A stretch of DNA of 64,000 nt from Polyangia bacterium (GCA_035258845.1 DATFWX010000130.1:17497-81496), one strand, 5' to 3'. Numbered from the stretch's first letter, positions 2,282 through 56,499 are shown. Made by a program: numbers and translations. Notes: a model not told the origin generated them from the sequence alone.

Positions 2282-2399
2282 GCCTTCTGCCTCCGAGAGG
2301 ATGCCCTCTTTTAGCGGAAACCACCTGCCCTGGCAAGTGTGACCTGGGCCACCTGAAATGCGAGGCCGGGCTCGTGCGTATGGAAGGAGAGGCAGACCC

Positions 2400-3842
2400 A
2401 TGCGCTCCGCGCAAGGCCCGTTCGCCCCGCCGCCGCCCGACATCCGAATGGTCGGTCGCGCGGTCGGGGGCCTGCTGCTGGCGACCGGCGCACCGATGCC
2501 GGCCGACCGCGCGCGCGCCGACGCCGCCCTTGCGCGGCTGGGCCGGCCGCCCCTCGAAGAGCGCGACCTTGTGCTGGCGACGCCCGAGGAGCTGGCGCCC
2601 CGCATTCCGGCCTCTGCGCGGCCGGGTCTGCTCGCGCTGCTCTACGAGCTGGCGGGCGACGAGCCCATCCGACGTCGCCTGGCCGATGCCTACGCGCGGC
2701 TGTTTTCGGCCCGGACCGCCGACGAGCCGCCGCTGTCGGCGGTGCCGCCGCTGCGCGCCTTGAAAACGCCCGCGCGCGCCCTTGTGCGCTGGCTTCTGGG
2801 CCCCCTGCCCCGCCACCATGATCGACTCTGGGAGGTGGAGATGAGCCACGGACCGTATCGCGACGCCAATCTCAACGAGCTTCCGGTCGCACCGTCGAGC
2901 CGCGCGCCCTTGCGCGACCGGGTCGAGCGCATCGCAGCCGAATGCCGGGACGTGCTGGCCGCGGTCGAGCAGGTGATCGTGGGCAAGCGGAGCGTGATCG
3001 AACGAGTCCTGGGGGCGTTGGCCGCGCGTGGTCACGTGCTGCTGGTCGACGTGCCGGGCACCGGCAAGACGCAGCTGGTCAAAGCGATCGGAGCTGCGCT
3101 CGCGGTCGAGTTCGGGCGCGTGCAGTTCACCCCCGACCTCTTGCCCGCGGACATCACGGGCGCAAACCTGTTCGACGTGCGCGATCACGAGTTCCGGTTC
3201 CGCCCCGGACCGGTGTTCACGCATCTTCTGCTGGCCGACGAGATCAACCGGGCCACACCCAAGACGCAATCGGCCCTGCTCGAGGTGATGGAGGAGCGTG
3301 CGGTCACCGTCGACCGGGTCACCCACCTGCTGGAGGAACCCTTCCAGGTACTGGCCACCATGAACCCGTACGATCACCAGGGTACGTTCCCGCTGCCAGC
3401 CGCCCAGATCGATCGCTTCGCGGTCATGCTCGAGCTGGGCTACCCGTCGAGCGCGGACGAGGTGCGCATGCTCGATCGGCACCTTCACGCGGAGCCTGCG
3501 CTCAAGGCGGTGCGGCCCGTGATTGCGCGCGAAGGATTTCTCGAGTGGCAGGCCACGGTGCCACTGATTCACGCAAGCCCCGACATCAAGCGCACGGTGG
3601 TCGACTACGTGCACGGTCTGCGGGCGGCCGAGCCGGGTCGCCCGGGGCCGAGCCCGCGTGCCACGCTTCACTGGGTGCGTCTCGCGCAGGCGCGCGCGCT
3701 GCTATGCGGGCGCGAGTTCGTGACCGTCGAGGACGTGCTGGAGGTCGCGCCCGATGTGCTGCGGCATCGCCTGTGGTCCGACGGGGCCAGCGTGCGCGAG
3801 CGGCTGCGCGGGGTGGCCGTGCGCGTGGCGGGGACGCCATGA
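2400..3842 (+). CDS. MoxR-family AAA+ ATPase with an N-terminal extension. An alternative internal start at 2841 gives a canonical 333-aa MoxR
   Basis: Walker A VDVPGTGKT, DEINRA and the MoxR core. The ATG at 2400 follows GGAAGGAGAGG; an in-frame ATG at 2841 follows GGAGGTGGAG. Confidence 0.85.
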   Translation: MRSAQGPFAPPPPDIRMVGRAVGGLLLATGAPMPADRARADAALARLGRPPLEERDLVLATPEELAPRIPASARPGLLALLYELAGDEPIRRRLADAYARLFSARTADEPPLSAVPPLRALKTPARALVRWLLGPLPRHHDRLWEVEMSHGPYRDANLNELPVAPSSRAPLRDRVERIAAECRDVLAAVEQVIVGKRSVIERVLGALAARGHVLLVDVPGTGKTQLVKAIGAALAVEFGRVQFTPDLLPADITGANLFDVRDHEFRFRPGPVFTHLLLADEINRATPKTQSALLEVMEERAVTVDRVTHLLEEPFQVLATMNPYDHQGTFPLPAAQIDRFAVMLELGYPSSADEVRMLDRHLHAEPALKAVRPVIAREGFLEWQATVPLIHASPDIKRTVVDYVHGLRAAEPGRPGPSPRATLHWVRLAQARALLCGREFVTVEDVLEVAPDVLRHRLWSDGASVRERLRGVAVRVAGTP

Positions 3843-5344
3843 GGGCCCTTTTTCGGCTTTCTCGCATGGCGGCGCTGCCTGTGCCCGCGCTTCTGGTGGT
3901 GTGGGCGGTCGCGGCGAACGACGGCCCGACCAACCTCGTGCTCAAGACCGGCACGCTTGCGATCTGGCCGCTGACCCTGCTGGTTGCGAGCGCGCTCGGG
4001 GTGCGCTGCCTGGAGGCGCGCCGGCTCGATCACTTGGACCTTTTGACCGGGAGCGGCCGCGCGCTGGCCTGGTCGGCGGCCGCCGTGGTCATCGCGTCGG
4101 TCCGCATCGGCTGGGCCAGCCTGGCCGTGGTGGGCCTGCTCGGGCTGGCGGTCGTGCATCTGACCGCCTTGTGGACCTGCCTGTTCGCGGCCGGACCCGA
4201 GCCGCTCGCACGTGCCACCGTCGAGCGCTGCTTCGAGCCGGCGGTGCCGGTCGAGGGCGATCGGGTCTGCGAGCGGATCCGGCTGGAAGGCGCGCGCATC
4301 CCGCCCGGCTGCCGGCTGTTCGTGTGCGCGCAGCTCGAGCGCGGGCCCGAGAGCCGCTACGTGGTGGAGGCCGAGGCCTCGGGCGCCGAGGTGCTGCTCG
4401 GTGGCGACCTGGGCCCGGCCGTGCGCGGCCAGCTGGTCGCGCCGCCGGTCTCGTTGTGGCTGGGCGATGTGCTCGGTCTATGCCGTGCGCCGCGCATCGA
4501 GCGCGGCGAGGCGCGACTTCTGGTGCTGCCGCGGCCCGCGCTGGTGGAGAGCGTGGACCCGCTGGTCGGGCGCTCGGGCCCGGGCGACGACTCGCGCCCC
4601 ACGGATCGGCTGCCCAGCGAGGGCAGCTTTCGGCTGCGTCCGTACGTCGAAGGCGAGGATGCGCGGCGCATCCACTGGCTGCGATCGCTGGCCCAGGGCC
4701 GGTTGATCGTGCGTCTGCCCGATGAGATCCCGGACGGCCGCGCGCGCGTGCGGCTGCTTCTCGATTGCTTCCTCCTGGGAGCCGACGGCCTGACCTGCCG
4801 CGCGCATCAGGAGCTCCTGGACGCGCTGGTGTCGGTGTGGCTGGGCGTGGGACGCGCGCTCGCCGAGCGCGGGTTCGAGGTGACGGTGGGCACGGCCGCG
4901 CCCGATCTGGTCGAGCGTCCGCTGGGCGCGCAGTGGGCGCGCGAGGCGTTGCGGCTGGGCGCGCAGGTGCGCTGGCAAGACTCGCTGCCGGTCGGCGATC
5001 TGGTGGGCAGACCGCGGCCGGGCTGCCGGACCATCGTGGTGTCGTGCCGGCCCCGGCAGCTCGATGACGGCCCGCAGCCCGAGTGGATCCTGGTGCCGGC
5101 GGCGCTGTGGACCCGCCCCGAGGCACCGAGCGCTCGCGTGAGCTGGGGCGTGCTCCCGTTTCCGACCGGCTGCGAGGAGAACCGCTTCACTCGCCGGCGC
5201 CGGCAGCGGCAACGAGTCGCGCGCGCACACGAGCATCGAGCGCTGGTCGAGATGCTGCTCCGGAGCGTGGCCCGGCCGCCGCGCGACCGGGTGCTGCGAG
5301 CCTGCCGGGACCGTGCGGGCGTGCGTCTGGAGGTGGCGCGATGA
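3839..5344 (+). CDS. DUF58 domain protein (MoxR-associated, vWA-like)
   Basis: RPYVEGEDARRIHW DUF58 motif with N-terminal TM helices. ATGA overlap with the MoxR stop. Confidence 0.8.
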   Translation: MRALFRLSRMAALPVPALLVVWAVAANDGPTNLVLKTGTLAIWPLTLLVASALGVRCLEARRLDHLDLLTGSGRALAWSAAAVVIASVRIGWASLAVVGLLGLAVVHLTALWTCLFAAGPEPLARATVERCFEPAVPVEGDRVCERIRLEGARIPPGCRLFVCAQLERGPESRYVVEAEASGAEVLLGGDLGPAVRGQLVAPPVSLWLGDVLGLCRAPRIERGEARLLVLPRPALVESVDPLVGRSGPGDDSRPTDRLPSEGSFRLRPYVEGEDARRIHWLRSLAQGRLIVRLPDEIPDGRARVRLLLDCFLLGADGLTCRAHQELLDALVSVWLGVGRALAERGFEVTVGTAAPDLVERPLGAQWAREALRLGAQVRWQDSLPVGDLVGRPRPGCRTIVVSCRPRQLDDGPQPEWILVPAALWTRPEAPSARVSWGVLPFPTGCEENRFTRRRRQRQRVARAHEHRALVEMLLRSVARPPRDRVLRACRDRAGVRLEVAR

Positions 5345-6837
5345 GCGCGCGTCCGGTCGTCCTCATCTACTGGCTGACGCTCGCGGGCGGCCTGGCTCTG
5401 CTGTCCTTCAGCCGGCCCGAGATGCCGGAGCTGCTGCCTTTGTGGGCGGGAGCGCTGGCCGGCACTGCGCTCGGTCAGGGGCTCGCGCTCGTACGCATGC
5501 GCTTCTGGGTGGGTGCGCTTGCGATTGGTACGCTTGTGATTGCGTTCGCGGGCGTGATCGCAACCGGGGCGCCGGCTCCGCTCTCGTTCCTGGCGGCGTT
5601 CGTCCCGGCTGCTGTGTGCGGCCTGGCCAGCCTGGGCGATGGGCGCGCGCTGGTCGCGTTCTGGTTTCCGGCCGTGCCGTGGATGGTGTGGGTGCTCGAT
5701 CGCGTCGAAGGCGGGGACGCACCCGATCAGATCGACGTGGCCAGTGGGGTCGCCCTGGCGGCGCTGGCGCTCTTATTCGTGCTGCTCCTGCGCGCGACAG
5801 AACGCCGCCGGGTCGCACTCTGGCAGAAGGTCGCGCCGACGCCGCTCACCACGACCGAGCCCCCCAGCGTGCTCCGCGAGTCGCCGGCGCGCCGCGTGGC
5901 GCGGATGGGCGTTTCGGCCGCCCTGGCGGCCGCTGCCGCGGTGGTGGTGGTGGAGCTGGCGCCGCTGCTGTGGCAGCACGAGCAGGTGGCGGCGCCGCCT
6001 GAAGCGCCGCGCGAGCTTGTCACCAGCCAGCCCGTGCTGGCGGTCGACCGCGTGGGCCCGGTGGCCACGCTGCCGTGCTGTCACCAAGTGCTGGTTCCGC
6101 TCCCTCACGCTCGCGTCCGCGAGTATCTCGATGTCGAGGCCGCACACCCGCGACCGGGCCCGACCGAGGTCGCGGGCGTGAATTGCCAGCCGTGCCAGCT
6201 GGCGGCCGCCGCGGCGGCAGCGGTGCCAGCCGGCCCACCGGTCGCGACCGCAGCGGTGCCGCCACCGATGCCGACTCCAGCCCCGCTCGCGCCCGCCCCG
6301 CCCGCCCCGCACGAGCCCGTGTCCACGCCCGTGCCCGCGCCCGTGCCCACGCCTCCGCCGCCCGCCGTCGCGTCCGCTCCGCCGACCACGCAACCGATTT
6401 CAGCAGCGCCCGCTCGATCCGACCCGGCGGCCTGGCTGCGCACGATCCTGGCGGCGGCCTTTCTGCTCGTGCTGGGCGCCCTGGGATTGCGGCCGCTGCG
6501 GCGCGCGCTCATCCTGCGCCACCTGCGTCGTCCCTTCTTTCCCGAGACGGTCGGCCAGCGCGTGTCCAACCTGTGGCAGCTCGCGCGCATCGGGCTGCGG
6601 GACGCCGGCTTTCGCACCTCGACCGGCGAGCCGCCCGGAAAGACCGCCCGCCGCATCCCGGTCCCGGGCCTCGCCACCTGCGCCACCGTGCTCGAGCGCG
6701 CGCGGCATGGCCTCGCGGTCGATCAGCAAGATCTTTCGGCCATGCGCAGCGCGGCCGAATCGGTCTACCGGGCCGCGCGCAGTCGCGTGGGCAGCCTGAT
6801 GCGCGCGCTGTCGTGGCTGCGCTGGCCGCTCGCCTAG
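5341..6837 (+). CDS. Polytopic membrane protein with a Pro-rich linker and a DUF4129-like C-terminal region; third gene of the MoxR operon
   Basis: ATGA overlap with DUF58. Multiple TM segments, PAPLAPAPPAP low complexity, and a C-terminal RRPFFPETVGQR...TARRIP region. Confidence 0.6.
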   Translation: MSARPVVLIYWLTLAGGLALLSFSRPEMPELLPLWAGALAGTALGQGLALVRMRFWVGALAIGTLVIAFAGVIATGAPAPLSFLAAFVPAAVCGLASLGDGRALVAFWFPAVPWMVWVLDRVEGGDAPDQIDVASGVALAALALLFVLLLRATERRRVALWQKVAPTPLTTTEPPSVLRESPARRVARMGVSAALAAAAAVVVVELAPLLWQHEQVAAPPEAPRELVTSQPVLAVDRVGPVATLPCCHQVLVPLPHARVREYLDVEAAHPRPGPTEVAGVNCQPCQLAAAAAAAVPAGPPVATAAVPPPMPTPAPLAPAPPAPHEPVSTPVPAPVPTPPPPAVASAPPTTQPISAAPARSDPAAWLRTILAAAFLLVLGALGLRPLRRALILRHLRRPFFPETVGQRVSNLWQLARIGLRDAGFRTSTGEPPGKTARRIPVPGLATCATVLERARHGLAVDQQDLSAMRSAAESVYRAARSRVGSLMRALSWLRWPLA

Positions 6838-6862: not shown

Positions 6863-9703
6863 CTACTTGGCGTTGGAGCAGCAGCGGAAGCCGACGTCTG
6901 AGTAGCCGGTGGCGGCGTCGACCCTTTGCACGAAGTCGCAGCGCGTGCGTGCCTGCTCACGCTGCGCGGAGCCGCCCACCGCGATCCGCTCGGCCACCCA
7001 CTCGGCGACGTTGCCGATCATGTCATAGGTGCCGACCGGGCTCTTGCAGCGCGGGAAGCTGCCGGCCTCTTTGGGCGCGCCCGACAGGTTGCAGCGCGCG
7101 GCGTCGTGCGTGTTGCCCCACGGATAGCTGGCGCCGTTCGGACCCTGGCAGGTGGCCAGCCATTCGCGGCGCGTGCACAGTCGGGCGCCGCGCAGCTTGC
7201 AGGCGCGCTCGGCGTCGGCCCAGGTGACGTTGGTGCGCGGCACGATGTGGCCGCCCGGGTACTCGTAGGCGTCGATGCAAAAAGCGTGGCCATCGACCTG
7301 GTGGCGCTTTGCGCCCAGCGGGCAGCCGGCGCTGTCCTCGCTGGTCGCCGGCTGTACGATCGGGGCCACCGGTGTGGGTGGAGGCGGGGACGCGGCGGGC
7401 GCGGGCGGTGCGGGCGACAGCACCGCGGGCGCCGGCTGCGCGGGCGCCAACGCGGGCGCGGGTTGCGCCTGCGGCTCCTGCTTGGCCAGAGCCTCGCGCC
7501 GGCGCAGCATCTCGACCTGTTTTTCCTTGGCTGCCCGTTCGGCAGCCGTGTCGCGCGCCTGCCGCCAGCGCAGGACGCCGAGCGCGCTCAGGGTGAGCAC
7601 GAGAAACCCAAGCCCCAGGATCGCCACTCCGAGCGGCGAAAGCGCCCGGCGCGCCATCACATGTGCGCCGAACTCGAGCGGACGCGGGGGCGGCGGGACG
7701 ATCAGGGTCGGGCCCGAGCGCGACGGCGGCATCGGCGCGGGCGGCGCCGCCGGATCGGAGTGAACCTGCGGTCGCGCGAGGCTCACGGGTGCAGCCGAGC
7801 CGTTGCCCCGCTGGACCGGCTGCGGAAGCTGTGGCGCCGGGACCAGCACCGGCCCGCGTGCGGACGGCAGCGCACGCGTGGGCACTGAGATCGGCGTCGG
7901 CGTGGGCTCGACCGGCTCGGGCAGCGGCGTAGGCGAGTCGAGATCGTCGGTCGCCGCCGCGCCCCGGCTCGCGGTCGGCTGCGGCGGCATGGGCGGGCTC
8001 GCGGCCAGCGACGGCGGCGCCGTCGGAGCCGGCGCCGCCGGGGGCGAAGGGGCGGCTGCGGGCGGCGCCAGGGCTCCCGGCTTGGTGCGGTCTCCAGGCG
8101 GCGCCGACACCGGAGGTGCCGACCCAGGCGGGGCGGGCGGGCCGGCGGGACGCCGCAGCGGCAGGCTCGGAATCGAGGTCACCGGCGGCCGTGGCAGCGC
8201 GGCCGAGCGGGCCGGCGCGGGTGCGGGCGGCTTCGCAAGGGGCGATGGCGGCTTCGCAGTCGGCGCTGGCGGCTTCGCATCCGGTGCCGGCGGCTTCGCA
8301 AGGGGCGCCGGCGGCCTCGCGACCAGTGCCCGCTCGGTGGCCACCTCGGGCGGCGGGATGCGCTCGACTGGAACGGTCTTCAGGTCGTCGAACACGCCCT
8401 CCGGCCGCCCGCTCTCCGGCCGCGCGCCCACCGGGGGCGCCAGTCGCAGCTCCTCGCCCGCGGCCTCCTCGCCCGCGGCCTCCTCGCCCGCCGGCAAAAT
8501 ATCCTCCACGCCCAGCTTCATGGTGTCGCCGCTCGAAGCCGCACGCAGCGCCAGCATCTCCTTCTCGCCGACCTGGCGCGTCTTCTCGCGTTCGGCTCCC
8601 AGCGCTACCTGCAGCTCCTCGTCGCTGATGCGCACCGTGCGCTCGGTCAGCAACGGATCGGCGGCCGAAAGCGGGCTGGGCGAAAGGGGTCGCACGGTCG
8701 CGTCCGGCCGTGTGTCATCGCGCGCCACCGGCATGGGCAGCCGCAACGGCCGCTCGCCCGCGCGCGCCGGCCCCTGTCCCTCGGGTGGGCGCACGCTGCG
8801 TGGGGGCGCGGGCGGCACCCGGCGCCCGGTTCGCGCCACTGCCTGCACCTCGGCCGCCAGCTCGACAACTCCCGGCCGTCGGGTCACGTCATCGTCGCGT
8901 GCTTCGGCCAGCACCTCGGCCAGCGCCGGCGGCACCTTGAGCGGGCCCCCCAGCATCTCCTCGATCACAACCGCAAGCGAGTAACTATCGGCGCGGGTAT
9001 CGGGCAGGGCGGCCGCCCGCACCTCGGGCGCCAGGTAGCGATCGGCTTGCGTTTTCGCCAAAATTTCCTGCAGCTGCGCGTGCGGCAGCTCCCGCCAGAC
9101 GGCGGCGTCGGCCACCTTGACCGCATCCGGCAGGATGATGATGTTCTCGGGCCGCAGCGTGCCCGCGAGCAGCCCGCGCTTGTGCAGCGCGAGCAGGCCC
9201 CGCGACACCTGGTGTACGATCGGCTCCAGGTCGGCCAGTGAAAACGTCTCCGCCTTGTCGCGCCGCAGCTCCAGCACCTTGCGCAGCGGCAGACCCTCCC
9301 AGAGCTGGAGCACCATGTAGGCGCGCTCGCCATCGAGCCCCACGTCGAAGCAGCGCACGACGTTGGGGTGCACGACCTGGGTCGCGCGCGCGAGCGTGTG
9401 CACGAACCGACCCCGCGCCTCCCAGTCGGGCAGCCGCTCCCGATCGAGGATCTTGAGCGCGACCTCGATCTCGACATCGTGATCGAGCGCGCGATAGACC
9501 GTGGCGGTGGGGCCCTCGCCCAGCCGATGCTTGATCTCGTAGCGGTCCGCCACCAGCTGGCCGGTCGCACCTTCGCGCGCACGCGGCGCCGGCTGCTCGA
9601 CCGGTGGCGGCCCCGCCAGCGGCGGCCCGCTCAGAGGCTGCGCGCAGGTGGGACACTGCGCGGTAGCCTCTGCGACCGGCGAACCGCAGCGGAAGCAGAT
9701 CAT
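6863..9703 (-). CDS. Predicted pseudokinase (degenerate Ser/Thr kinase domain) with an N-terminal zinc ribbon, one TM helix and a C-terminal FGE-sulfatase (SUMF1-type) domain
   Basis: MICFRCGSP...CPTC ribbon. Kinase subdomains GEGPTATVY and ALK are present, but HRD is AGT (LAGTLRPEN) and DFG is DAA. Pro-rich linker, TM (LSPLGVAILGLGFLVLTL). FGE motifs YPWGN...DMIGNVAEWV. The ATG at 9703 was confirmed in the sequence. Confidence 0.85.
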   Translation of the reverse strand: MICFRCGSPVAEATAQCPTCAQPLSGPPLAGPPPVEQPAPRAREGATGQLVADRYEIKHRLGEGPTATVYRALDHDVEIEVALKILDRERLPDWEARGRFVHTLARATQVVHPNVVRCFDVGLDGERAYMVLQLWEGLPLRKVLELRRDKAETFSLADLEPIVHQVSRGLLALHKRGLLAGTLRPENIIILPDAVKVADAAVWRELPHAQLQEILAKTQADRYLAPEVRAAALPDTRADSYSLAVVIEEMLGGPLKVPPALAEVLAEARDDDVTRRPGVVELAAEVQAVARTGRRVPPAPPRSVRPPEGQGPARAGERPLRLPMPVARDDTRPDATVRPLSPSPLSAADPLLTERTVRISDEELQVALGAEREKTRQVGEKEMLALRAASSGDTMKLGVEDILPAGEEAAGEEAAGEELRLAPPVGARPESGRPEGVFDDLKTVPVERIPPPEVATERALVARPPAPLAKPPAPDAKPPAPTAKPPSPLAKPPAPAPARSAALPRPPVTSIPSLPLRRPAGPPAPPGSAPPVSAPPGDRTKPGALAPPAAAPSPPAAPAPTAPPSLAASPPMPPQPTASRGAAATDDLDSPTPLPEPVEPTPTPISVPTRALPSARGPVLVPAPQLPQPVQRGNGSAAPVSLARPQVHSDPAAPPAPMPPSRSGPTLIVPPPPRPLEFGAHVMARRALSPLGVAILGLGFLVLTLSALGVLRWRQARDTAAERAAKEKQVEMLRRREALAKQEPQAQPAPALAPAQPAPAVLSPAPPAPAASPPPPTPVAPIVQPATSEDSAGCPLGAKRHQVDGHAFCIDAYEYPGGHIVPRTNVTWADAERACKLRGARLCTRREWLATCQGPNGASYPWGNTHDAARCNLSGAPKEAGSFPRCKSPVGTYDMIGNVAEWVAERIAVGGSAQREQARTRCDFVQRVDAATGYSDVGFRCCSNAK

Positions 9704-9704: not shown

Positions 9705-12259
<2,555 letters not shown>

Positions 12260-12306
12260 TGTGCGGACTCCTTTCGTCGGAGCCCGCGGGCGCTTGATCC
12301 TTCGCG

Positions 12307-12334
12307 CCTGCACCCCGCGCTGCCGAGGTGCAGG
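12307..12334 (-). promoter_or_regulatory. Perfect 8-bp stem-loop in the pnp 5' leader (candidate RNase III / PNPase autoregulatory hairpin)
   Basis: CCTGCACC-ccgcgctgccga-GGTGCAGG, about 50 nt upstream of the pnp ATG in the rpsO-pnp intergenic region. Confidence 0.45.
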
Positions 12335-12363
12335 AGTCAAGAACCAACTCGCCGCGAGGCTCC

Positions 12364-12400
12364 AAAAACGGGCCGAACGCGCCCTCGCGCGCCCGCCCCG
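12364..12400 (-). terminator. Putative rpsO intrinsic terminator or attenuator
   Basis: A GC-rich imperfect hairpin (CGGGCGCGCGAGGGCGCGTTCGGCCCG) followed by TTTTT on the minus strand, directly after the rpsO stop. Confidence 0.4.
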
Positions 12401-23365: not shown

Positions 23366-25090
<1,725 letters not shown>

Positions 25091-25150
25091 TTTAGCTCGA
25101 ATGGCCGCGCCGCGGTAGCCAGCCGCCTCGGGAGACTCTACACTGCGCTC

Positions 25151-25444
25151 ATGACTCGCTCGCTCGCATTGCTGTTCAGCTTTCTTCTCGGCGGCGCGCT
25201 CGCGACCCTTTGTGTGCGCGCGCCCGCCCACGCGGCCGCACAACTGCCCGCAAGCGCGCCTGGCTCGCACCGGTGGGAGCAGTTCTGCAGCTACCGCACG
25301 CAGAGCGGCGCCGGCAGCCCGCAGGCCATGCTCAAGCAGACCAACGATGACCTGATGAACTATGGCAAGCAGGGCTGGGAGCTGGTCACCGGCGCCGGCA
25401 GCGGATCGGTGTTCGTGTACTGCTTCCGGCGCTCGGTGGAATGA
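25151..25444 (+). CDS. Small secreted protein, DUF4177-like (GWELV motif)
   Basis: 97 aa with signal peptide MTRSLALLFSFLLGGALATL. The C-terminal WEQF..GKQGWELVTG..YCFRR recalls DUF4177. Confidence 0.4.
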   Translation: MTRSLALLFSFLLGGALATLCVRAPAHAAAQLPASAPGSHRWEQFCSYRTQSGAGSPQAMLKQTNDDLMNYGKQGWELVTGAGSGSVFVYCFRRSVE

Positions 25445-25445
25445 G

Positions 25446-26513
25446 TTACGCCGGTTCCTGCTGCGTCATGCAGTGGAGCGTGCCCAGTCCCCACAGAAGA
25501 TCCACCGCGTGGATGCCGATCACCTCGCGATCCGGGAACAGCTCGCTGAACAGGCCCAGCGCGTCGCGGTCGTGCGGATCGTTGAAGGTCGGCACCAGGA
25601 GGAGGTCGTTGGCCAGATAGAAGTTGGCGTAGCTGGCCGGCAAGCGGCGCCGGTCGAAATCGATCGGGCGCGGCAGCGGCAGCGGGATCACCTCGAGGCG
25701 CCGGCCGGCGGCATCGGTGGCGCCGCCCAGTCGCTCGCGGTTTTCCTCGAGCAGCGCATAGTTGGCGTCGCGCGGATCGCGGGCGCGGCACAGCACCACG
25801 CGCCCGGGCTCGACGAAGCGCGCGACATCGTCGACGTGGCCATGCGTATCATCGCCGAAAAGGCCCCGGCTCAGCCAGATCAGCTTGCGCGCGCCCAGGG
25901 TCTCGTAGAGCACCTGCTCGGTGCCGGCCCGGCCCAGGCCCGGGTTGCGCGCCTGCACAGGATCGAGCAGGCACTCCTCGGTCGCCAGAAGAGTGCCCGC
26001 GCCGTCGCCGTCGATGGCGCCACCCTCGAGCACCACGCGCTCCGCGCCCGCCCGGGCCTGAAACTGGGGCACCCCGGCCAGCTCGGCCACGCGAGCGGCC
26101 ACCTTCTGATCGCGCTTCCAGTCGGAATACTTGGCCCAGGCATTGAACCGCCAGCACACGGCTGCACGCGTGCCGTCGGGCCGGCGCACGAAGGTGGGAC
26201 CGGAGTCGCGCATCCAGGCGCGGTCGGTCGGCACCCGAAAAAACCCGACGCGGGCAAGCTCGATACCCGCACGCACGAGCACGCGCCGCGCGCGCCGCTC
26301 CCCACGCGCGTCCGGGACCAGGATCTGCACCCGCTCGTGCTGGTGCAGGTGGCGCACCACCTCGGCAAACACCCACGGGATGGCCGCGAACTTGCCCGGC
26401 CAGTCGGCCTGATTGTGCGGCCAGGCCAGCCAGGTTGCGCGATGAGGCGCCCACTCGGCCGGCATGGCGTAGCCGAGCGCAGCCGGTGCCGCGTCGAGCC
26501 GCCGCGGCCTCAT
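25446..26513 (-). CDS. aguA: Agmatine deiminase
   Basis: MPAEWAPH...WLAWPH N-terminus of the Porphyromonas-type PAD family. ATGA overlap with the aguB stop. Confidence 0.85.
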   Translation of the reverse strand: MRPRRLDAAPAALGYAMPAEWAPHRATWLAWPHNQADWPGKFAAIPWVFAEVVRHLHQHERVQILVPDARGERRARRVLVRAGIELARVGFFRVPTDRAWMRDSGPTFVRRPDGTRAAVCWRFNAWAKYSDWKRDQKVAARVAELAGVPQFQARAGAERVVLEGGAIDGDGAGTLLATEECLLDPVQARNPGLGRAGTEQVLYETLGARKLIWLSRGLFGDDTHGHVDDVARFVEPGRVVLCRARDPRDANYALLEENRERLGGATDAAGRRLEVIPLPLPRPIDFDRRRLPASYANFYLANDLLLVPTFNDPHDRDALGLFSELFPDREVIGIHAVDLLWGLGTLHCMTQQEPA

Positions 26514-39924: not shown

Positions 39925-40593
39925 TCAGGGCACCTTCTCGAAGCAGATGGCACCGGGAAAGTCGCGGCAGCTCGAGGGCCCGCCGAGCGCAGCCGGAATG
40001 ACGAGCGCCGCCGTCAGCGCAACCACCACCGCGGCCCCGGTCGCCCACACGTACCAGTGGTCGTACCACTTGGGCGGCGGCGGCGGCGGCGGGCGGAACG
40101 GATTCTCGGACGCTGGCAGCTCGGTCAGGTTGGCGCGCACATCGATGGTCTGCCCCGCCACCGCTTCCACGCTGGTCAAGAAGTCGTGGTAGCCGCCCTT
40201 GACCACCCGCACCGACCGCTTGCCGGCCGCAAGCTCGGCCACCACGGGCTCGTCGGATACCTCACCCACGAACTTTCCGTCCACGAACACGCGCGCGCCC
40301 AGGATAGATGAGCTCAGGCGCATGATCCCGCTCACCGGAAGAAGGTCCACGTCGACCGGCGTGCGCTTGTGCTCGCGCACCGTCACCACATCCAGATAGT
40401 CGGTGAAGCCGCGCTTGGTGATTTTCACGGTGTGCTGCCCGACCGCGAGCGAGATGGGCCGCGCCATCGGGACCTTGCCCATGAGCCTTCCGTCGACGTA
40501 GATCTCGGCGCCCACGGTTCGCGAGTGCACGGCCAGCTCCCCGCGCGGTCCCGCGAGTAGGGGCAGCCATGCCAGCGCCAGAAGTCCTGTCAA
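39925..40593 (-). CDS. Tandem PEGA-domain protein with a C-terminal TM anchor
   Basis: Two PEGA-like beta modules (AEIYVDGRLMGKVP...; ARVFVDGKFVGEV...), a poly-Pro stretch and a TM. TTG start overlapping the stop of the giant TPR gene as TTGA. Confidence 0.6.
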   Translation of the reverse strand: MTGLLALAWLPLLAGPRGELAVHSRTVGAEIYVDGRLMGKVPMARPISLAVGQHTVKITKRGFTDYLDVVTVREHKRTPVDVDLLPVSGIMRLSSSILGARVFVDGKFVGEVSDEPVVAELAAGKRSVRVVKGGYHDFLTSVEAVAGQTIDVRANLTELPASENPFRPPPPPPPKWYDHWYVWATGAAVVVALTAALVIPAALGGPSSCRDFPGAICFEKVP

Positions 40594-43500
40594 CGCAACT
40601 CCGCCAGTGCCTCCTTGAGTGGCCCGTGATCGGGCTCGAGCTCGAGGCCCCGCTCGTACATATTACGCGCCTTGGGGCCTTCTCCCAACCGTGCGTGGAT
40701 CCGACCCAGCTCGAGGTACACGTCAGCCTTGGTCATCTTGCTGTCCGCGTCCAGGTTCTGCAGCAGCATCGATCGGAACACCTTGCGCGCCTTTTCCCAC
40801 TCGGACTGCTTGATGTACAGGCGCCCTAGCGCCGCCATCGTGGCGCCGTGCGTGGGGTCGATCGCAAATGCGGCCTGAAGGTGCTCGAGCGCCTGCGCCT
40901 CCTGGCCCTGCTGCTCCGCGATGGCGCCCAGCCGGAACTGCCAGCGCGCCGCTTCGCGGCTTCGTTTGCCCTTGAGCCGCTCGATCAGATCGGTATAGAG
41001 GCGACCTGCCTCGGCCACCCGTCCGGCCGAAAAATAGGCGTCGGCCAGGGGCTCGACCACCCGCGCGTCCTCGGGCGCCAGCCGGGCCGCCTGCTCCAGG
41101 TACGGCAGCGCCGCCGCCGGCGCGCCCAGCTGGACGCGCAGAAGCCGCCCCAGCTCGACCAGAAGGTCGCGCTTTTTGGCCGGGTCGGGCTCGGCCTGCT
41201 CGCGCAGCTTGAGAAGGTCGACCACCCGCCGCCAATCGGCCCGTTCGCGCGCGCGCTCGGCCAGCCCGTCCAGCGCCTCCGTGTGGGTGGGGTCGTACTG
41301 GATGGCCTGCGCCCAGTGCTCCTCTGCCAGCGCCGGATCACCCGAGCGCTGGGCCTCCACGCGCCCCATGCGGAAGTGGAGCTCGGCCGCCGGCCGACCG
41401 GTCGCGCCCAACGCGGCCGCCTGCTCCAGCGCCTGCGCGCACTTGTCCCACTCGCCCTGCGTCTCGTAGATGCGTGCGAGCTGCGTGATGGCGGCCACGC
41501 TCCGAGGATCCCGCGCCAGCACCTTTTCCAGAATCTCGGCCGCGCTGTCGCTGTTGCCGATGCGCCGCTCCCACAGATCGGCCAGCGCGAGCAGCTTCTC
41601 GATCTCGCCGGCATGGTCACGCCGCCCGGCCAGTAGCTCGGCGTGCTTGGCCAGAACGTCCGCCAGCTCATACCAGCGCTCCCCGGCCGTGAGCAGCCGC
41701 TCCAGCTCGCAGAGCACCGGCTCGCTCTCGGGCTGCGACTCCAGGGCCTGCGTCCAGAAGCCGATCGCCTCGTCGGCGCTCTCGCGCTTTTCCTCGGCCA
41801 AACGCGCCAGCTTGCCGTAGATGGCCAGCTGCTCGCCGGGCCCGCCAGCGGCCTGCAGCTGCTGCGTGAGCACCTCCTGCACGGCCAACCAGTCCCCGCG
41901 CTGCGTATGCACGGCCTCCAGCGCGGCCAGAACCTCCGCATCACCAGGCCGCGCGTCGAGCGCCGCCCGGTACATGTCGGCCGCGCGATCGGCGTCGCTC
42001 AGCCGCTCGCCGAACACCGCGCCCGCGCGCGCAAGCAGAGCGGCCTGCTGGGCCGGGTCGTCGGCCAGCCGAGCGCTCCGCTCGAGCACGGCCGCCAGCT
42101 CGGCCCACTCGCCCGCCGCCTCCAGCAGACGCGCCAGCTCTCGGCACGCATCCGCGTCGGTCTCGTCGGCATCGAGGGCCGCCCGCCACACCTCCACCGC
42201 CGCCTGACGATCGCGCAGCCGGCCCTCGTAAAGCCCGGCCGCCTCCGCCAGCAGGGCCCGCTTCTTTGACAGGTCCAGCTCGCCGTCCGCGCGCTTCTGC
42301 AGCACCTGGGCCAGCGCGCGCTCGTCGCCGCGCATGCGATAGATGCGCTCGAGCGCCTCCAGCGCATCCGAGTTTTCGGGATCGAGCCCCAGCACCTTGC
42401 GGTAGCGCGCCTCCGCACGCGCGGGGTCGCCGGCCTGGTCCAGCCACAGCGCCCCCGCTGAAAGCCCGAGGTCGCGCGCCGCCTCCCGCGAGCGCTCCTG
42501 GGCCGCGTCGGCCACCGCCTCGATGCGCGCGGCCGCGTCGGCGTGCCGGCCCAGGGCCGCCGCCAGCCGCGCCACCTCTTCGGCGTAGCGCAGCTCGCCC
42601 GGATCCTCGGCCAGCGCGCGCGCGTAGGCATCGAGCGCCGCGGCGGGGTCCTGGAGCTGTTTTTCCTGGATCTCGGCAATGCGCTCCAGCTGCCGCGCCC
42701 GCTCCAGCGGCTCATCCTGGAGCTGCAGCTTGACCTCGAGCACGCGCACCACGTTCTTGGCGTCGGCCCGGGTCTCGAACACCGGCTCCAGGACCTCGAT
42801 GGCCTCCTCACGATAGGTCACGTCGTCGAGGTACTTGGCAATCCCGGAAATGGCCTCGTCGTGGCCCGGCTCGCGATCGAGCACCTGCCGCCAGGCCGCG
42901 ATGGCGCCCTCATGATCGACCAGCCGCTCCACCCGCATCAGGCCCAGCCGGTACAGAAACCCGGCCTGCTCGCCCGGATCCAGGCTCGCCTGCGCCTCCC
43001 GCTCGAGCACTTCCGCCAGCTCATCCCAGCGACCCAGGGTCTCCAGCAGCCGATCGAGCGCCCCCAGAGGCCCGCTCTCTTCGCCCGGGAACTCGAGCGC
43101 GGTCCGCAGCTTCTCGACTGCGCGCGCGGCATCGCCCAGCGCGTCCTCGTAGATGGCCGCCAGCTTGAGCGCCAGCGCGCGCCCGATCTCGGCGTCGTAC
43201 TGGCTCTGCAGCCGATCCTCGTACAGCGCCGCCAGGTCGGCGAACGCACCGCGCCCCGCCGCCAGCCGCTCCAGCTCGCGCTGCGCATCGGCGTCGCCGG
43301 CGTCCTCGGCCAGCGTGCGCCCCCAGGCCGCAAACGCCGCCTGCAGATCGCCCCGGCCAGTCTCGTGCAGCGCGGCCAGATCGGCGAGCAGCTGGCGCCG
43401 CCGCGCCGGATCGGTCTCCGCCTCCAGGCGCAGCTCGTACACCTCGGCCAGCCGATCCCATTCCTTGCGGGCGCGCAGATAGGGCTCGAGCGCGGCCGCC

Positions 43501-46500
43501 GCCACCTCGCGCGTGCCTTCCGCGCGCGTGAGCGCAAACAGGGCATCGCGTGCGCCCGCATGCTCGGGCAGCGTCTCCAGCACCTGTTTGTAGCGGGCCA
43601 GGGCCGCATCGACGTCGCCGGTGTCGTCCTCCAGCACCCGCGCAGCCCGGAACCGGAGCTCCTCGCGCTCGGCCGGCCGCGTTGCCACAGCGATGCGCGC
43701 CTCCAGAACCTCGAGCAGGTCGGCCCACATCTTCTCGGCGTCATAGAGCCGGTCGAGCGCCGCCAGCGCCTCCAGGTCCTCCGGATCCAGCTCGCGCGCC
43801 TGCTTGTAGCAACCGATGGCTTCGTAGCGGTCCTCGATCTGGGTCTCGTAAACGCGAGCCAGCTTGTAGAGCAGCGCGCGTTTTGCCGCGGCGTCGACGC
43901 CGAGCTCGACCTTGCGAGCCAGCACCAGCGCCAGCTGGCGCCACTCGCCGGCCGCTTCGTGCAGGCTCGCCAGCGCCTCCAGCGCCCGCGAGTCCTCGTC
44001 ATCGATGCCCAGCACGCGCTGCCAGATCTCGACCGCGCGCGCGGGCCGCGCCAGGGTCTTCTCCTCCAGCTCGGCCACCCGGTACAGCAGCGTCTTGCGC
44101 AGCACCAGATCGTCGCTGAGGTCACTGCGCCGCTCCATCACGTCGATCAGCTCTTCCCAGCGCCGCTCGCTCTCGAGCAGCTTCTCGAGCGCCCCCAGCG
44201 CCCGCACATCGTCGTCCTTGGCCGCCAGCACGCGCCGCCAGGCCTCGATGGCAGCGGGCAGATTGCGCAGCCGCTCGGCGTACAGCTCGGCCGCGCGGCC
44301 ATGCAGCTGCATCGCCAGCTCGGGATCGTAGGTCGCCTCGGCTGCCTTCTCGAGCACGCCGACCAGATCGCCAAACCGATCCAGCTCGGCGGACAGGCGC
44401 TCGAGCTCGGACAGCGTCCCCTCCGCCCCCGGGTCTTCCGCGAACGCGCGCGCCAGCGCGTCCCAGGCCCGTTTGCGATCGCCGCCCCGGGCCTCGTGCA
44501 GGCGCGCGATCTCGCGCAGGATCTCGACCCGCCGCCCCGAGTCCTCGATGAACTCGAGCTGGGCGTCGTACGCGGCCGCCAGCTTGGCCCACTGGTCGCC
44601 GCCCCGGTAGATCGGCTCCAGGATCTGCGCGATGCGAAAGCGGTGATCTTTGTCCGCGCTCAGCCGTTCGAGCGCAGCCAGCGACTCCTTGTGCGCGGGA
44701 TCGCGCTGCAGGCACTCCTCGTAGGCGTCGATGGCCGACGAGATGTCCTCCAGGTTCTGCTCGAAAATCCCGCCCAGCCGCAACTTGAGCGCCAGGTAGG
44801 CCGCGCCCTCGGCGCGGTCGAGCTGCTGCAGGAGCAGCTCCACCAGATCGTGCCACCGGTTCTCGGCCGACAAGAGCCGATCGAGCGCGCTCTGCGCGGC
44901 CGCATCTTCGGGATCCTGCTCCAGGATGCGCCGCCACGCCGAAATGGCCTGCTCGCGGTCGGAAAGCTCGACCTCGTGCACGCGCGCGCTCTTGACCAGG
45001 AGCTCCTTGCGCACGCCGGCTTCGGTTTCCTTGTCGGCCAGCTGCTCGTACAGGTCGAGCAGATCGCGCCAACGCGCCGCCCGCTGCAGCGAGCGCTCGA
45101 GCGCCTGCACGACGGTCGCATCGCCGGGCGATTGCTCGAGCAGCCTCTCGTAGCACTGGCGCGCGCGCTCGACATCGCCCAGCCGCTCGTCGTAAAGCCC
45201 CGCCAGCGTCCAGCACACGGCCGACCAGGCCGGTCCGGGCTCGAGCGTGTCGTCGAGATAGCTTTGATAGGTTTCGGCCAGATCCTTCCAGCGCTCGAGG
45301 ATGCCGGAAAGACGCACCAATTGATCGCGCGCGCCCCGGTCCTCGGGGCTCTCGCGGAACACCTTGCCGTACCAGCGGAAGGCCTGCTCCAGGTCCTCGA
45401 GCTGCTCCTCGTACAGGCGCGCGATGCGCCGCGTGAGCTGCATCCTCAGCTTGGGCTCCTCGGCCGCCAGCAGGCGGATCTCGTAGATGCGGACCAGCTT
45501 GGGCCAGTCCTGGCGCGCCGCGTACACCGGCTCCAGCACCTCGGCGGCGGCCCCCTGTTGCGCCGGATCCTCGAGGTAGCGCTCGAGCGCCGCGATGCCG
45601 CCCGCATGACCAGGCTCGCCGCCCAGGGTGGCCCGATAGTTCTCGACCGCGCGATCGGGATCGCGCAGCACCCGCTCGTACAGCTCGCCGAGCTGGAAGC
45701 GCAGCCGCACCGCTTCCTCGAGATCCTCGGCGAAGCCGAGCCGCCGCTCCAGAAGGTCGGCCAGGTCGGCCCACCGCTTGGCGCCGCGGTACAGGCTTTC
45801 CAGCGCCGCCAGGGCTTCGCGGTCCGAGGTCGCGATCTCCAGAATCTGCTCGTGCAGCGAGATGGCCTCGCCTTCGCGTTCCAGCTTTTCCTGACAGAGC
45901 GCGGCCGCGCGCGCGAGGTAGTCGCGTTTCTCGTCGAGATCGCGCGAGAGGTCGGCTCGCTTCTGATAAACCTCGAGCAGCGGTTCCCAGTCCTGCGCTT
46001 CCAGATACAGGGCCTCCAGGGCCGCCAGCGCGCGCGGATGATCGGGTGCCGCGTTGAGCACGCGCTGGTAGTACTCGCGCGCCAGCTCCACGTCGCCGAG
46101 CTTTCCGCGGGCCTGATCCGCCACCGCCAGATAGATGCGCTGCTGGGCCTCCGGATCCAGAACGTCACTTCCGACCTCGCGATACAGCTCGACCAGCTCG
46201 GCCTGCCGCCTCCGATCGGCCGCGATGCGCTCGAGCGCATCCAGAATGACCGGCAGATCGCCGCCCGCCAGCGCGCCCTTGGCCGCGCGCGCGTAGGTGT
46301 CGAACGCGCCGTCCGAGTCGCCGAGCTTCTCCTTCAGCTCGGCGGCCGCGCGCAGCCGCTGCACCTTGACCTCCTGGTCCGACACGGTTTCGGCCAGTAG
46401 CTCGTGCAGGGCCACCTGCTTGGCCAGGTCGCCGCGCGCGTGATAGATGGGCTCCAGCACCTCGGCCGCCTTGAGCTTGAGCGCCTCGTCGGCCAGTGCC

Positions 46501-49500
46501 CGCTCCATGCCCGCGATGGCCTTGCCGTCGGCAGGCTCGATCGCCAGGATGTCCTGCCACCTTTCGACCGCCACCTCGAGCCGCCCCAGCTTGTCCTCGG
46601 CCAGCGTGGCCAGCCGATGCATGAGCGCGAGCCGCGCCGGCTGGTCCTCGCAAAGGGTCAGCTCGCGGATCAGCACCTCTCGCAGATCGGCCCAGCGGCC
46701 GGCCGCCTCGTACAGGCGCCCCAGAGCATGCAGGGCCTGCAGGTCGTCGGGCAGCTCGTCCAGGATGGCCAGATAGCTGTCGATGGCCTCGGCGGCCACA
46801 CCCAGCTCGCGCTCCTGGATCTCGGCCATGCGCCAGTACAGGTCGCGCCGTTCGCGCGCCTCGTGCGACAGGTCGACACGCCGCTTGAGGATGCCGAGCT
46901 GGTCACGCCACGAGGAGCCGGACGCATAGAGCCGCTCGAGCGCATCGAGCGCGCTCGCGTCGTCGGCCTCCTGCTCCAGAACCTCGCGGTAGGTCGCCAC
47001 CGCGCCCGCAGCGTCGCCCAGCTTCTGCTCGCGGATCTGCGCCACCCGGAGCAGCAGGTCCTTGCGCGCGGCCGCATCGTCAGCCCAGCCCGCCTGCAGG
47101 AGCAAGATGTCGGTCAGATCGGTCCACGCCTCGGCGCGCTCGTACAGGGCCGCCAGCGCGGCCGCCGCCGGCTGCGCGGTCGTATGGTTTTTTGGATCCA
47201 GATCGAGCAGCCGCCGCCAGGCGCCCTGAGCCCGCGCCGGGTCGTACAGCTTTTCGTCGTAAATCCGGGCGGCGCGCTCCAGGTACTCGGCGCGCAGGGC
47301 CAGGTCGCCGGGCGGCGCCAGCCCGATGGATTCCTCCCACGCCTGCGCGACGTCGTTCCATTTCTCGAGCAGCTTACCCAGCCGCTGCACGTTGTCGCGT
47401 GCGCGCTCGTCGGCCGGATCCATGCGCAGGCCCTCGCGCCAGGTCAGAAACGCGGCCTGACGGGCGGCCAGCTTGTCTTCCTGCAGCTCCGCGATGCGCG
47501 CGGTCAGCTCGCGCGCCTGCACCGGGTTGGCAGCTTCGCGCCGCACCTGCAGAACCACGGCCAGCTTGGCCCACGCTTCGTCGTGCTCGAACAGGGGCTC
47601 CAGGACGCCGGCCACGCGCTGGCGCAGCTCGGCGCGGCCCATCAGCCGCTCGAGCACCTTGCGCGCGCCCTCGTGCCCGGGCGAGGCCGCCAGCACCTCC
47701 TCGAGCAGATCGACCGCACCCGGGAGGTCCTGCAGCTTGGTCGCGTGCAGCTCAGCGCGCTTGAAGCGGAGGGCGGCCGCTTCCTCGGGCGCGCGCGCAT
47801 AAGGCAGCTCGTTCTGCAAGAGCTCATCCAGCTGGCCCCATTTCTCGCCCAGCGCGAGCACGCGCTCGAGCGCCTTGAACGAGCGCGCGTTGCCCGGATC
47901 GAGCTCCAGGACGTGCCGATACATCTCGACCGCGTGCTCCTGGTCCTCGAGCACGCCCTCGTCGAGGTCGCAGATGTCGAACAGGAGCTGCCGGCGCTGG
48001 CCCGGGTCGGCCTCGCGCTGCTGGCGCTCGAACAGCAGGGCCCGCAGATCCTGCCACTTCTCTTCCTGGCGGTAGATGCGGGCCAGCGACTGGAACGCAC
48101 GCTCGCCCGCCTCGCCGGTCGCCGTGCCCGCCACCTTGGCGTAGAACTCGGCCGCCTTGTCGCTGCGGCTGAGGCGGCTGTCGTAGATGTCCGCGATCTC
48201 GGTGAAGATCTCGCGGGCCGTGTCGGGGTCGACCGCGCCCGCCGCCTGCTCGAGGCGTGCGGCCAGATCGTCCCAGCGATCGAGCGCCTCGGCCAGCTGA
48301 CTGAGCATCCGGCGCAGGTCGGCCTCGCCGGGCTGCTTCTCGAGCACCCGCGCTGCGTGGTCATAGGCCTTGGCTCCATCGCCCAGCTTGCGGTAGATAG
48401 AAGCCAGGCGGCGCGACAGCGCCAGTCGCTCGCCGTCCTCGGGCGCGGCCGCGTACAGGATCTCGAGCGCCCGCGCGAGCTTCTGCGGATCGGCCTCGCG
48501 CTCGTAGAGCGGCAGAAGCAGTCGGGCGGCTTCGGCGCGATGCACCTTGTCGTCGAGCAGCCGTTCGATCGCGAGCGCCGAGCTGCGATGCCCCGGCAGC
48601 ACCTGCAGCGCCTGCTTGTAGGCAGCCAGCGCGCGCGCGCGGTCGCCGAGCTGCTGCTCCAGGATCTTGCCCTGATCGGCCCACAGCGCCGCCTTGGTGT
48701 CGTCGGCGTCGGCGAGCGCGAGCTTGTCCTCGAGCACCCCGATGACCTCGGGCCATTCCTGGCGCGCGGTGTGAATGCGCTCGAGCGAGGACAGGATCTT
48801 GCTGGTCTCGCGGGCCGCGCCGGCGGAGCGCGCGGCCAGAAGCGCCTTGCGGTAGGTGGCCGCGGCGGCGGCCAGATCGCCCAGCCGCTCCTCCTCGATG
48901 AACGCGATGCGCGTGAGCAGCTCGAGCTGCTTCTGCGGCTCGCGCTCGGCGTCCGCACGGCGCCTGTAGATCTCACACAGCTCGGGCCACGCCGACTGCT
49001 GCGTGAAGATCTGCTCGAGCGCCGCCGACGCCTCGGGGTCGCTGCCGTCGCGCGCGATGACCTCTTCCCAGTACCTGCGGGCATCGACCGGGCGACCAGT
49101 CTTTTCGCGCGCGATCCGCGCGAGCCGCCGAAACACGACCACCTGCTCGGCCGGGTCGGACATGCCCTCGGCGCGCCGGGCGTACAGCGCCGACAGGTCG
49201 TCCCACGCGCCCGCTTCCTCGGCCAGCCGCTCGAGGTCCTTGACCACGACCGGGTCGTCGGAAGCCAGCTCGTAGGCCTTGGAGCACCATTGGAAGGCCA
49301 GACCCTTGGAGCCCAGCTTCTGCTCGCACAGGAGGCGGATGTCGCGCAGAAGCTCCAGCCGCTCGGGACGCCCTTTTTCGTGGCCCAGCAGGATCTCGTA
49401 GGTGGCCAAAAGGCGCGCCCACTTTTCGGTCGATTGATAGATGGGCACCAGAGCGCGCGCGGCCGAAAGGTTGCCGGGCTCGAGGGCCAGGATGCGCTCG

Positions 49501-56425: not shown

Positions 56426-56499
56426 CGTGTGCGATAACTCCCACACACGACTTCGTTTGCTCGCTTACCAGTACGCGCGTTAAACTATGGACGGCGCCA

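Follow-up and report, generated by a model that had tools for sequence, protein, structure and literature searches.

Fusions between a kinase and a DUF323/FGE-sulfatase domain (FGE, formylglycine-generating enzyme) have been known since 2005 from chlamydial kinases (Krupa & Srinivasan, PMC1262709), and fusions with the FGE-sulfatase domain, formerly called DUF323/NirV, are listed in the bSTK atlas for the canonical family 'Proteo1' (bioRxiv 10.1101/2025.01.12.632604). According to the same atlas, there are seven bacterial pseudokinase families (CP1, DYD, DLHK, GLW, and ActPs1-3), all of which carry VAIK-Lys substitutions, in 34-100% of their members; MviN (Rv3910) of Mycobacterium tuberculosis, whose structure is mentioned, belongs to ActPs3, a family without the VAIK Lys, the HRD Asp, and the DFG Asp (bioRxiv 10.1101/2025.01.12.632604). 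As well, the Tsi3 type VI immunity proteins are periplasmic, protein-binding members of the FGE fold that have no catalytic cysteines (bioRxiv 10.1101/2021.05.21.445229). Here we describe a gene from a 64,000-nucleotide stretch of a Polyangia bacterium (GCA_035258845.1, DATFWX010000130.1:17497-81496), hereafter the window, from whose first letter all positions are counted. The gene (6863..9703, minus strand; 946 codons plus stop) encodes what is probably a single-pass membrane receptor-like pseudokinase of an ancient, vertically inherited Myxococcota family.

The kinase-like domain of this protein (residues 55-290; 8834..9541, minus strand), delimited by Pfam and by alignments to StkP and PknB from which its individual residues were assigned, is almost certainly catalytically inactive, as far as its sequence predicts. 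The Pkinase model (PF00069) matches with 82.8 bits against a cut-off of 31.7, covering only positions 1-193 of the 263 in the profile. The first-pass annotation, which was made from the sequence alone, had called the domain a dead pseudokinase in which the HRD Asp is replaced and DFG is DAA, while the Gly loop, the VAIK Lys, and the APE motif are kept. Both substitutions are borne out by the alignments: in the degenerate catalytic and Mg-binding loops AGTLRPENIIILPDAVKVADAA (9101..9166, minus strand), the HRD position reads A180-G181-T182, with Thr in place of the catalytic Asp, and the DFG position reads D199-A-A, with Ala for both Phe and Gly. Among the features thought to be kept, the beta3 Lys (K84, in VALK) and the APE motif (residues 225-227) are indeed present, as are the catalytic-loop Asn (N187) and the DFG Asp (D199), while the Gly loop reads GEGPTA, with its third Gly replaced by Ala. 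The call itself proved stronger than stated, with losses that also include the alphaC Glu (replaced by T103), the HRD His and Arg, the DFG Phe and Gly, and alphaG. The HRD His and the DFG Phe, which are both Ala here, are residues of the regulatory spine, and between alphaF and alphaH the protein is about 27 residues short of PknB, which leaves it without the substrate-docking alphaG region.

The same degeneration is found in the orthologues P0002-P0004, which come from independent metagenomes and share about 50% identity overall with the window protein; their HRD motif has become AGA or AGS and their DFG motif DPA or DAG. A sequencing error that hides intact HRD and DFG motifs was therefore rejected, as like motifs in other samples indicate inherited changes. 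By the definition used in the bSTK atlas, a kinase fold without at least one of the VAIK Lys, the HRD Asp, and the DFG Asp, these proteins are pseudokinases through the loss of the HRD Asp, for which the window protein has Thr and P0002-P0004 have Ala or Ser. From the conserved residues, we infer that the domain may still bind a nucleotide.

Relatives were collected by an exhaustive hidden Markov model (HMM) search with the zinc-ribbon plus kinase-like region as the query, in which at least 150 representatives scored 303 bits or higher, while generic kinases, scored in a separate word-index search of a different database, reached at most 189 bits. A tiny family of about 20 sequences, as suggested by word-index searches, was rejected as an index artefact after the exhaustive search; the family is large, with 126 or more clusters (50% identity). 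The named members all come from Myxococcota or 'Deltaproteobacteria', including the cultured Corallococcus praedator (WP_120584250.1) and metagenome-assembled genomes of Bradymonadia, Myxococcales, and Polyangia, and the family is apparently confined to Myxococcota. Besides Corallococcus, Myxococcus is probably also among the cultured, genetically tractable relatives. No curated NCBIfam model reaches its threshold on the window protein, and no publication on a zinc-ribbon/kinase-like/mini-FGE family was found in the literature.

Residue statistics were obtained from 126 family sequences (50% identity clusters) with a single N-terminal domain. The beta3 Lys is invariant (126/126), and the three Gly-loop glycines are present in 119, 122, and 125 of the sequences, the window protein alone having Ala for the third. 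The catalytic-loop Asn occurs in 121 sequences, with Asp in the remaining five, and the DFG Asp in 124. The HRD Arg is found in none, Gly standing in its place in 105 sequences, and the alphaC Glu is present in 26. The catalytic Asp itself occurs in 60 of the 126 sequences and is otherwise Asn (34), Gly (14), Ala (6), Cys (4), Tyr (3), or another residue, Ser and Thr included. All five canonical residues occur together in 11 sequences. On a neighbour-joining tree of the family, which is crude, the presence of the catalytic Asp requires at least 25 state changes, compared with about 41 for randomised labels. As the catalytic Asp varies while the nucleotide pocket is conserved, the catalytic base appears to be evolutionarily dispensable, and the pattern over the whole family suggests nucleotide binding without phosphotransfer. 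Moreover, several residues are invariant in a family-specific manner (R54, R141, R147, Q165, P192-D193, and K196). The clade of the window protein is the most degenerate, and only 4 of the 126 sequences carry Ala for the HRD His.

These counts also bear on two other explanations of the kinase-like domain. It is unlikely that the protein is an active but atypical kinase, in which another residue, such as E186 or T182, or a substrate-assisted mechanism takes over from the catalytic Asp, as happens in other kinases formerly regarded as dead. Such a kinase would fit the retention of K84, N187, D199, the APE motif, and most of the Gly loop, the catalytic Asp of 60 members and the full canonical set of 11, and the weak activity of some eukaryotic 'pseudokinases', which the bSTK atlas also discusses (bioRxiv 10.1101/2025.01.12.632604). 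However, in the window clade the losses of the catalytic base, of alphaG, of the alphaC Glu, and of three motif residues (the HRD His and the DFG Phe and Gly) all coincide, and a catalytic position that has changed at least 25 times, to Asn, Gly, Ala, Cys, Tyr, Ser, and Thr, would be unexpected for an enzyme. Alternatively, the fold might have been repurposed for other nucleotide chemistry, such as AMPylation, ATPase activity, or nucleotide hydrolysis, as in SelO- or SidJ-type pseudokinases. Strict conservation of the nucleotide and metal residues beside a freely varying phosphotransfer base would be expected in that case, and the family-specific invariant residues could form a new site; yet neither Pfam nor NCBIfam gives any similarity to SelO or SidJ, no alternative catalytic residue was identified, and this speculative explanation seems improbable to us.

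At the other end of the protein lies a Cys-rich 'mini-FGE' domain of the FGE-sulfatase / C-type-lectin-like fold (residues 791-946, 156 aa; 6866..7333, minus strand), which, judged from its sequence features, is a non-enzymatic FGE-fold module, probably for binding, and not a sulfatase maturase. The FGE-sulfatase model (PF03781) is matched only in part, at profile positions 89-245 of 255 within 115 residues (4.1e-15); a full-length FGE domain has about 250-280 residues, and positions 1-88 of the profile find no counterpart here. When a 121-sequence family profile was aligned to PDB chains, it matched FGE in two separate stretches, and about 65 residues between 'YEV(S/T)N' and 'PV.HVSW' are absent family-wide, the alignment skipping FGE residues ~73-140 (chain numbering). 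The window clade is also without the N-terminal 'GxFxMG' strand that most relatives keep, and in total about 90 residues of the FGE fold are missing from the domain.

In about 95 family domains, Cys never occurs at the columns equivalent to C336 and C341 of human FGE, the catalytic Cu(I)-binding pair; in the profile alignment the FGE stretch with this pair is left without a match, and the window domain has no Cys between GGS (residues 910-912) and C922. The latter is the lone Cys of the 'GGS...RC' region and aligns with human FGE C346, a structural disulfide partner. Ten cysteines are conserved in about 93 of the 95 domains. Four of them, as the pairs C835/C941 and C852/C922, we take to correspond to the FGE disulfides C218-C365 and C235-C346, by residue counting on the human FGE sequence, anchored on the profile alignment. 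The six further conserved cysteines are predicted to form three extra disulfides compared with pFGE. The segment D894-M-I-G-N-V-A-E-W aligns with 'N-I-V-G-N-A-W-E-W' of FGE, and DMIGNVAEW also with YDLLGNVWEW. This D-x-x-G-N-x-x-E-W motif falls at the Ca2+ site of FGE.

The best PDB match of the domain is pFGE/SUMF2 (1y4j), with 1.7e-8 in the sequence search and 6.5e-28 in the profile search. An AlphaFold2 model built from 121 sequences has a pLDDT (predicted local distance difference test) of 91.3 and replaced an earlier model from 8 sequences, for which the pLDDT was 66.8. In a Foldseek search with the AlphaFold2 model, 1y4j was matched with a TM-score of 0.73 and a root-mean-square deviation of 2.3, both FGE and pFGE had a probability of 1.0, and PorK structures were among the fold matches. 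The missing catalytic pair, the shortening, and the closeness to the inactive pFGE together indicate a non-enzymatic module, and an active FGE or sulfatase maturase was rejected for want of the catalytic cysteines. The domain had earlier been described as complete, and that description did not survive, since only the C-terminal ~60% of the Pfam model is matched; nor did the sulfatase-maturase-like reading, given the residues at the C336/C341 positions and the inactive best match. What remains of that description is its other option, a ligand-binding module, which agrees with its own statement that loss of the catalytic cysteines would leave a structural domain.

For these reasons, the proposal that the outer domain is a working formylglycine-generating enzyme or a related oxidase, which an inactive kinase tethers to the membrane, is effectively refuted, and we give it almost no weight. 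Its support consists of the Pfam FGE-sulfatase match and of relatives that are named 'SUMF1/EgtB/PvdO family nonheme iron enzyme' at NCBI, a name that is misleading on many members given the missing catalytic residues. Besides the lack of both Cu-binding cysteines in all family domains, the ~90 missing residues, and the match to pFGE, the chemistry of EgtB/OvsA would need a DinB_2 domain, for which the window protein has no Pfam match, and the SenA model scores 13.9 bits, below its cut-off of 420. Nor did the Pfam scan of the window genes reveal a sulfatase, the Cys-type (CxPxR) kind being the substrate of FGE.

Many database entries (P0123, P0143, P0171, and others, and P0373 and relatives) are short proteins named 'formylglycine-generating enzyme family' or 'SUMF1/EgtB/PvdO family nonheme iron enzyme'. 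Several of these begin inside the linker or at the transmembrane (TM) helix, or else exactly at the border of the domain with no signal peptide, which suggests that many are truncated gene calls or contig fragments of the pseudokinase family. A widespread separate family of standalone mini-FGE proteins of about 180 aa was therefore rejected, the entries being likely fragments of the pseudokinase family. Within the 126 sequences, the mini-FGE domain was detected in 93, and the remainder are mostly fragments.

The two folded domains are joined in an architecture that had been described before as a zinc ribbon, a Pro-rich linker, and a single TM segment, and all three elements were found. The protein begins with a four-Cys zinc ribbon, MICFRCGSPVAEATAQCPTCAQ (residues 1-22; 9638..9703, minus strand), of the form CxxCG...CxxC with rubredoxin-type knuckles, which reads CFRCG...CPTCA in the window protein and gives a weak match to the Pfam DZR model. 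The pattern CxxC-x(6-20)-CxxC is present in 109 of the 111 complete family N-termini, and in 101 both knuckles are CxxCG. The kinase-like domain is followed by a cytoplasmic, low-complexity Pro/Ala-rich linker (residues 291-692; 7628..8833, minus strand), about 400 aa long with 22% Pro, which is poorly conserved in the orthologue alignment. A segment of this linker (residues 353-405, TERTVRISDEEL...SGDTMKLGVEDILPA; 8489..8647, minus strand) is conserved only in P0001-P0004, and its TxxI/TxxL motifs are possible docking sites involving phospho-Thr. A linker motif conserved across the family was rejected, as jackhmmer found the segment only in the four closest orthologues. The linker also contains two in-frame tandem repeats, one of 21 bp x4.5 at 8226-8320 (AKPPAPx heptads, 82% matches) and a perfect one of 15 bp x2.8 at 8450-8491 (EEAAG), both of which are probably sites of length variation between strains.

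The predicted TM helix, VAILGLGFLVLTLSALGVL (residues 693-711; 7571..7627, minus strand), is the sole hydrophobic segment of the protein, and every homologue examined has one segment of this type. It is followed by a charged, helix-like stretch, RWRQARDTAAERAAKEKQVEMLRRRE, and then by a Pro/Ala spacer (together residues 712-790; 7334..7570, minus strand). A topology with the kinase-like part inside the cell and the Cys-rich domain outside, as first suggested by the first-pass annotation, is plausible, since the protein has a single TM segment and its ten cysteines are invariant, including four that align with those of the two structural FGE disulfides.

The reading frame of the gene is well supported. 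The window has a GC content of about 70-75%, at which long chance open reading frames (ORFs) are frequent; the present ORF has a GC content at third codon positions (GC3) of 0.87, and Pfam finds, in one frame, Pkinase at residues 55-253 (3.5e-23) and FGE-sulfatase at residues 819-933 (4.1e-15), so that significant domains at both ends, together with the GC3, argue against a chance product. The ORF runs on the minus strand from an ATG at 9703 to its 3' end at 6863. Homologues open with the same MxCxRCG as the window protein, which supports this ATG rather than the TTG further upstream in the raw ORF. The product is identical to the database protein P0001, which is annotated as 'protein kinase [Polyangia bacterium]' and comes from a 106-kb contig of a metagenome-assembled genome.

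A former receptor kinase that is now decaying into a pseudogene would account for the position of the window clade as the most degenerate of the family (HRD His to Ala in 4/126, third Gly to Ala in 1/126, and extra deletions). Such decay is, nevertheless, highly unlikely. The frame of 946 codons is intact with a GC3 of 0.87, the zinc ribbon, the ten cysteines, K84, and D199 are kept, and the position in the operon is conserved. In addition, conservation over the four orthologues is 57-66% across both folded domains: within the clade, identity to the window protein is 57-63% in the kinase-like part and 65-66% in the C-terminal domain. Conservation of the folded domains and not of the linker points to a functional, non-decaying protein.

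The gene lies directly downstream of dut (dUTPase; 9705..10151, minus strand), which in turn follows pnp (polynucleotide phosphorylase; 10148..12340, minus strand), and the further neighbours on the same strand are rpsO, truB, and genes for a DHH protein and DUF503, infB, and nusA; the pseudokinase gene thus stands at the tail of nusA-infB-rbfA-truB-rpsO-pnp-dut. The gene annotation of the window thus agrees with the pnp-dut operon context described earlier, as does the sequence with the start of the gene 1 nt past the dut stop: the dut TGA (9705-9707) is separated by one base from the ATG (GGT TGA G ATG). No terminator-like or sigma-70-like site was found between pnp, dut, and the pseudokinase gene in a promoter/terminator scan, which fits co-transcription of the three, although such a scan is weak evidence in a myxobacterium of ~70% GC.

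Among 14 informative loci, dut is directly upstream on the same strand in 10 (the window, L086, the P0004 contig, L003, L088 of P0009, L089, L007, L009, the Corallococcus L090/L091, and L092 of P0397) and is absent upstream in L001, L087, L012, and L020. In L086 (P0002), dut and the family gene overlap by 4 nt (ATGA), whereas the gap in distant members is 68-258 nt, namely 68 nt in L003 (P0007), 83 nt in L089 (P0005), 116 nt in L009, and 258 nt in the Bradymonadia locus L007. As judged from these loci, the adjacency to dut is conserved across Myxococcota, while only the clade of the window protein has the tight translational coupling. The proposed translational link to dut accordingly stands for the window and does not extend to the family, and the housekeeping context that had been thought odd is real and, being conserved across the phylum, ancient. 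Moreover, purB is located 0-4 genes downstream of the family gene in most loci.

Between the pseudokinase gene and a gene of the metallo-beta-lactamase fold (MBL) plus purB, the window carries a plus-strand cassette (2358-6837) that comprises a MoxR-type AAA_3 ATPase (2358-3842) and two ORFs without a Pfam match, one with a DUF58-like 'RIHWLRS' motif (3836-5341) and one rich in membrane segments and Pro (5338-6834). It looks like an insertion, because in relatives the kinase-like gene is directly followed by MBL and/or purB. In L001 (5212-7167), the P0006 locus, which belongs to the one well-sampled relative without dut upstream, a second Pkinase gene and a gene for a 169-aa protein without a Pfam match precede the family gene, and purB-purC-purS-purQ-purL are still found downstream.

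Elsewhere in the window, a GC-rich hairpin with a T-run (12374-12395, minus strand) lies between rpsO and pnp, the classical position of an rpsO terminator or pnp leader. A canonical Ser/Thr kinase is encoded about 14 kb from the pseudokinase (23366-25465, minus strand), between a TPR protein and agmatine deiminase; its motifs are intact (GQGAMG, VAIK, QEAR, HRD, DFG, and APE), it has a TM segment and a Pro-rich tail, and it is a candidate partner of the pseudokinase. The window also possesses a single open frame of 3,740 codons (40590-51812, minus strand; GC3 0.89) that consists almost entirely of TPR-type repeats and is adjoined by genes for a PEGA-domain protein (39925-40662) and a methyltransferase. 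As well, a large hybrid sensor of the form GAF-PAS-HisKA-HATPase with two receiver domains and GGDEF (56230-59847, plus strand) is encoded downstream of two ABC exporter genes and a ferredoxin gene.

Taken as a whole, we favour, with reasonable but not high confidence, a receptor-like pseudokinase that combines a periplasmic sensor with a cytoplasmic switch or scaffold. The kinase-like domain would bind ATP or a different nucleotide without transferring phosphate, serving together with the zinc ribbon and the linker as a conformational switch or as a scaffold for partner proteins, and the C-terminal domain would act in the periplasm, held by disulfides and probably bound to Ca2+, as a sensor of a ligand or protein. 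Occupancy of the sensor might be relayed through the single TM helix by oligomerisation or by a change of conformation, and the signal could then pass to partners docked to the pseudokinase itself or to its long disordered linker. Such partners might be found among the organism's many active Ser/Thr kinases, or they might be readers of phospho-Thr. Expression of the pseudokinase would be tied to the growth-related pnp-dut operon.

Several points weigh against this receptor-like pseudokinase. The ancestral family protein may have been an active kinase, as 11 of the 126 members retain all canonical residues, and even the binding of ATP by the window protein could be weak because the third loop Gly is Ala and the regulatory spine is broken. 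The C-terminal flank of the TM helix is more basic than the N-terminal one, contrary to the positive-inside rule for a topology with the N-terminus in and the C-terminus out. The dut/purB adjacency may reflect only the frozen gene order of a core locus and not function. Finally, neither an FHA-domain gene nor another obvious partner gene was found in the window, and no published biochemistry on any family member was found in the literature.

A wider and much more tentative proposal is that proteins with the zinc ribbon, the non-RD kinase-like domain, the TM helix, and the ten-Cys mini-FGE domain constitute a core signalling family, not described before, that spans the phylum Myxococcota and couples an envelope or extracellular cue to nucleotide metabolism or growth. 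Its members would then be nucleotide-binding receptor pseudokinases that lost the catalytic base repeatedly and were kept beside dut and purB by that coupling, a suggestion we regard as doubtful at present. If true, the family would correspond, in Gram-negative bacteria, to the PknB/PASTA or MviN/FhaA modules of growth control.

Compared with the known systems, the chlamydial and Proteo1 kinases share the domain order of kinase fold, TM segment, and FGE-sulfatase-type domain, and the function of their outer domain is not known. Unlike the window protein, they are treated as canonical and have a full-length FGE-type domain, whereas the window family is non-RD, with a catalytic Asp that is dispensable or absent, a CxxCG ribbon, a ten-Cys FGE-type domain of ~155 residues, and a fixed dut/purB locus. 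Nor does this family appear to be one of the seven pseudokinase families of the bSTK atlas, from whose description it is set apart by the invariant beta3 Lys. Bacterial pseudokinases are few and poorly understood, and the locus points to a family distinct from those seven.

In logic, and not in sequence family, the window protein resembles MviN/FhaA. MviN, too, sits in the membrane, with a pseudokinase inside the cell and a binding-type domain outside the cytoplasm, and serves as a scaffold; in work attributed to Gee et al. in 2012, its juxtamembrane Thr is said to be phosphorylated by PknB and to recruit FhaA. However, MviN is fused to a MurJ flippase and has another outer fold, whereas the window protein has a single TM segment, no MurJ, and keeps the Lys and the DFG Asp. 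Like the outer domain, pFGE/SUMF2 has no catalytic Cys pair, and the two share the Ca2+-site motif and the placement of the structural disulfides; pFGE differs in being a soluble, full-length protein (~270 aa) of the endoplasmic reticulum lumen, while the window domain is ~90 residues shorter and tethered to a pseudokinase. Tsi3 and the PorK/GldK ring lipoproteins are, similarly, non-catalytic periplasmic FGE folds that work by protein binding, but they have no kinase fusion, belong to other subfamilies, and function in the context of type VI or type IX secretion. As for the ribbon, PknG carries two CxxCG knuckles N-terminal to its kinase fold, of the same type as in the window protein. PknG is, in contrast, a soluble, active kinase with a TPR domain, and the window protein is a membrane pseudokinase whose ribbon of ~22 residues is connected to the fold by a linker of ~30 residues.

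Since kinase-FGE fusions and bacterial pseudokinase families are already known, the window system is not categorically new. What sets the family apart is a strictly conserved nucleotide pocket with a catalytic Asp in about half of the members, together with a non-enzymatic FGE-fold sensor and a fixed position between pnp-dut and purB. If the protein is a genuine receptor scaffold, it would offer a testable entry into how kinase folds without catalysis are built into the signalling of myxobacteria, which have hundreds of kinases.

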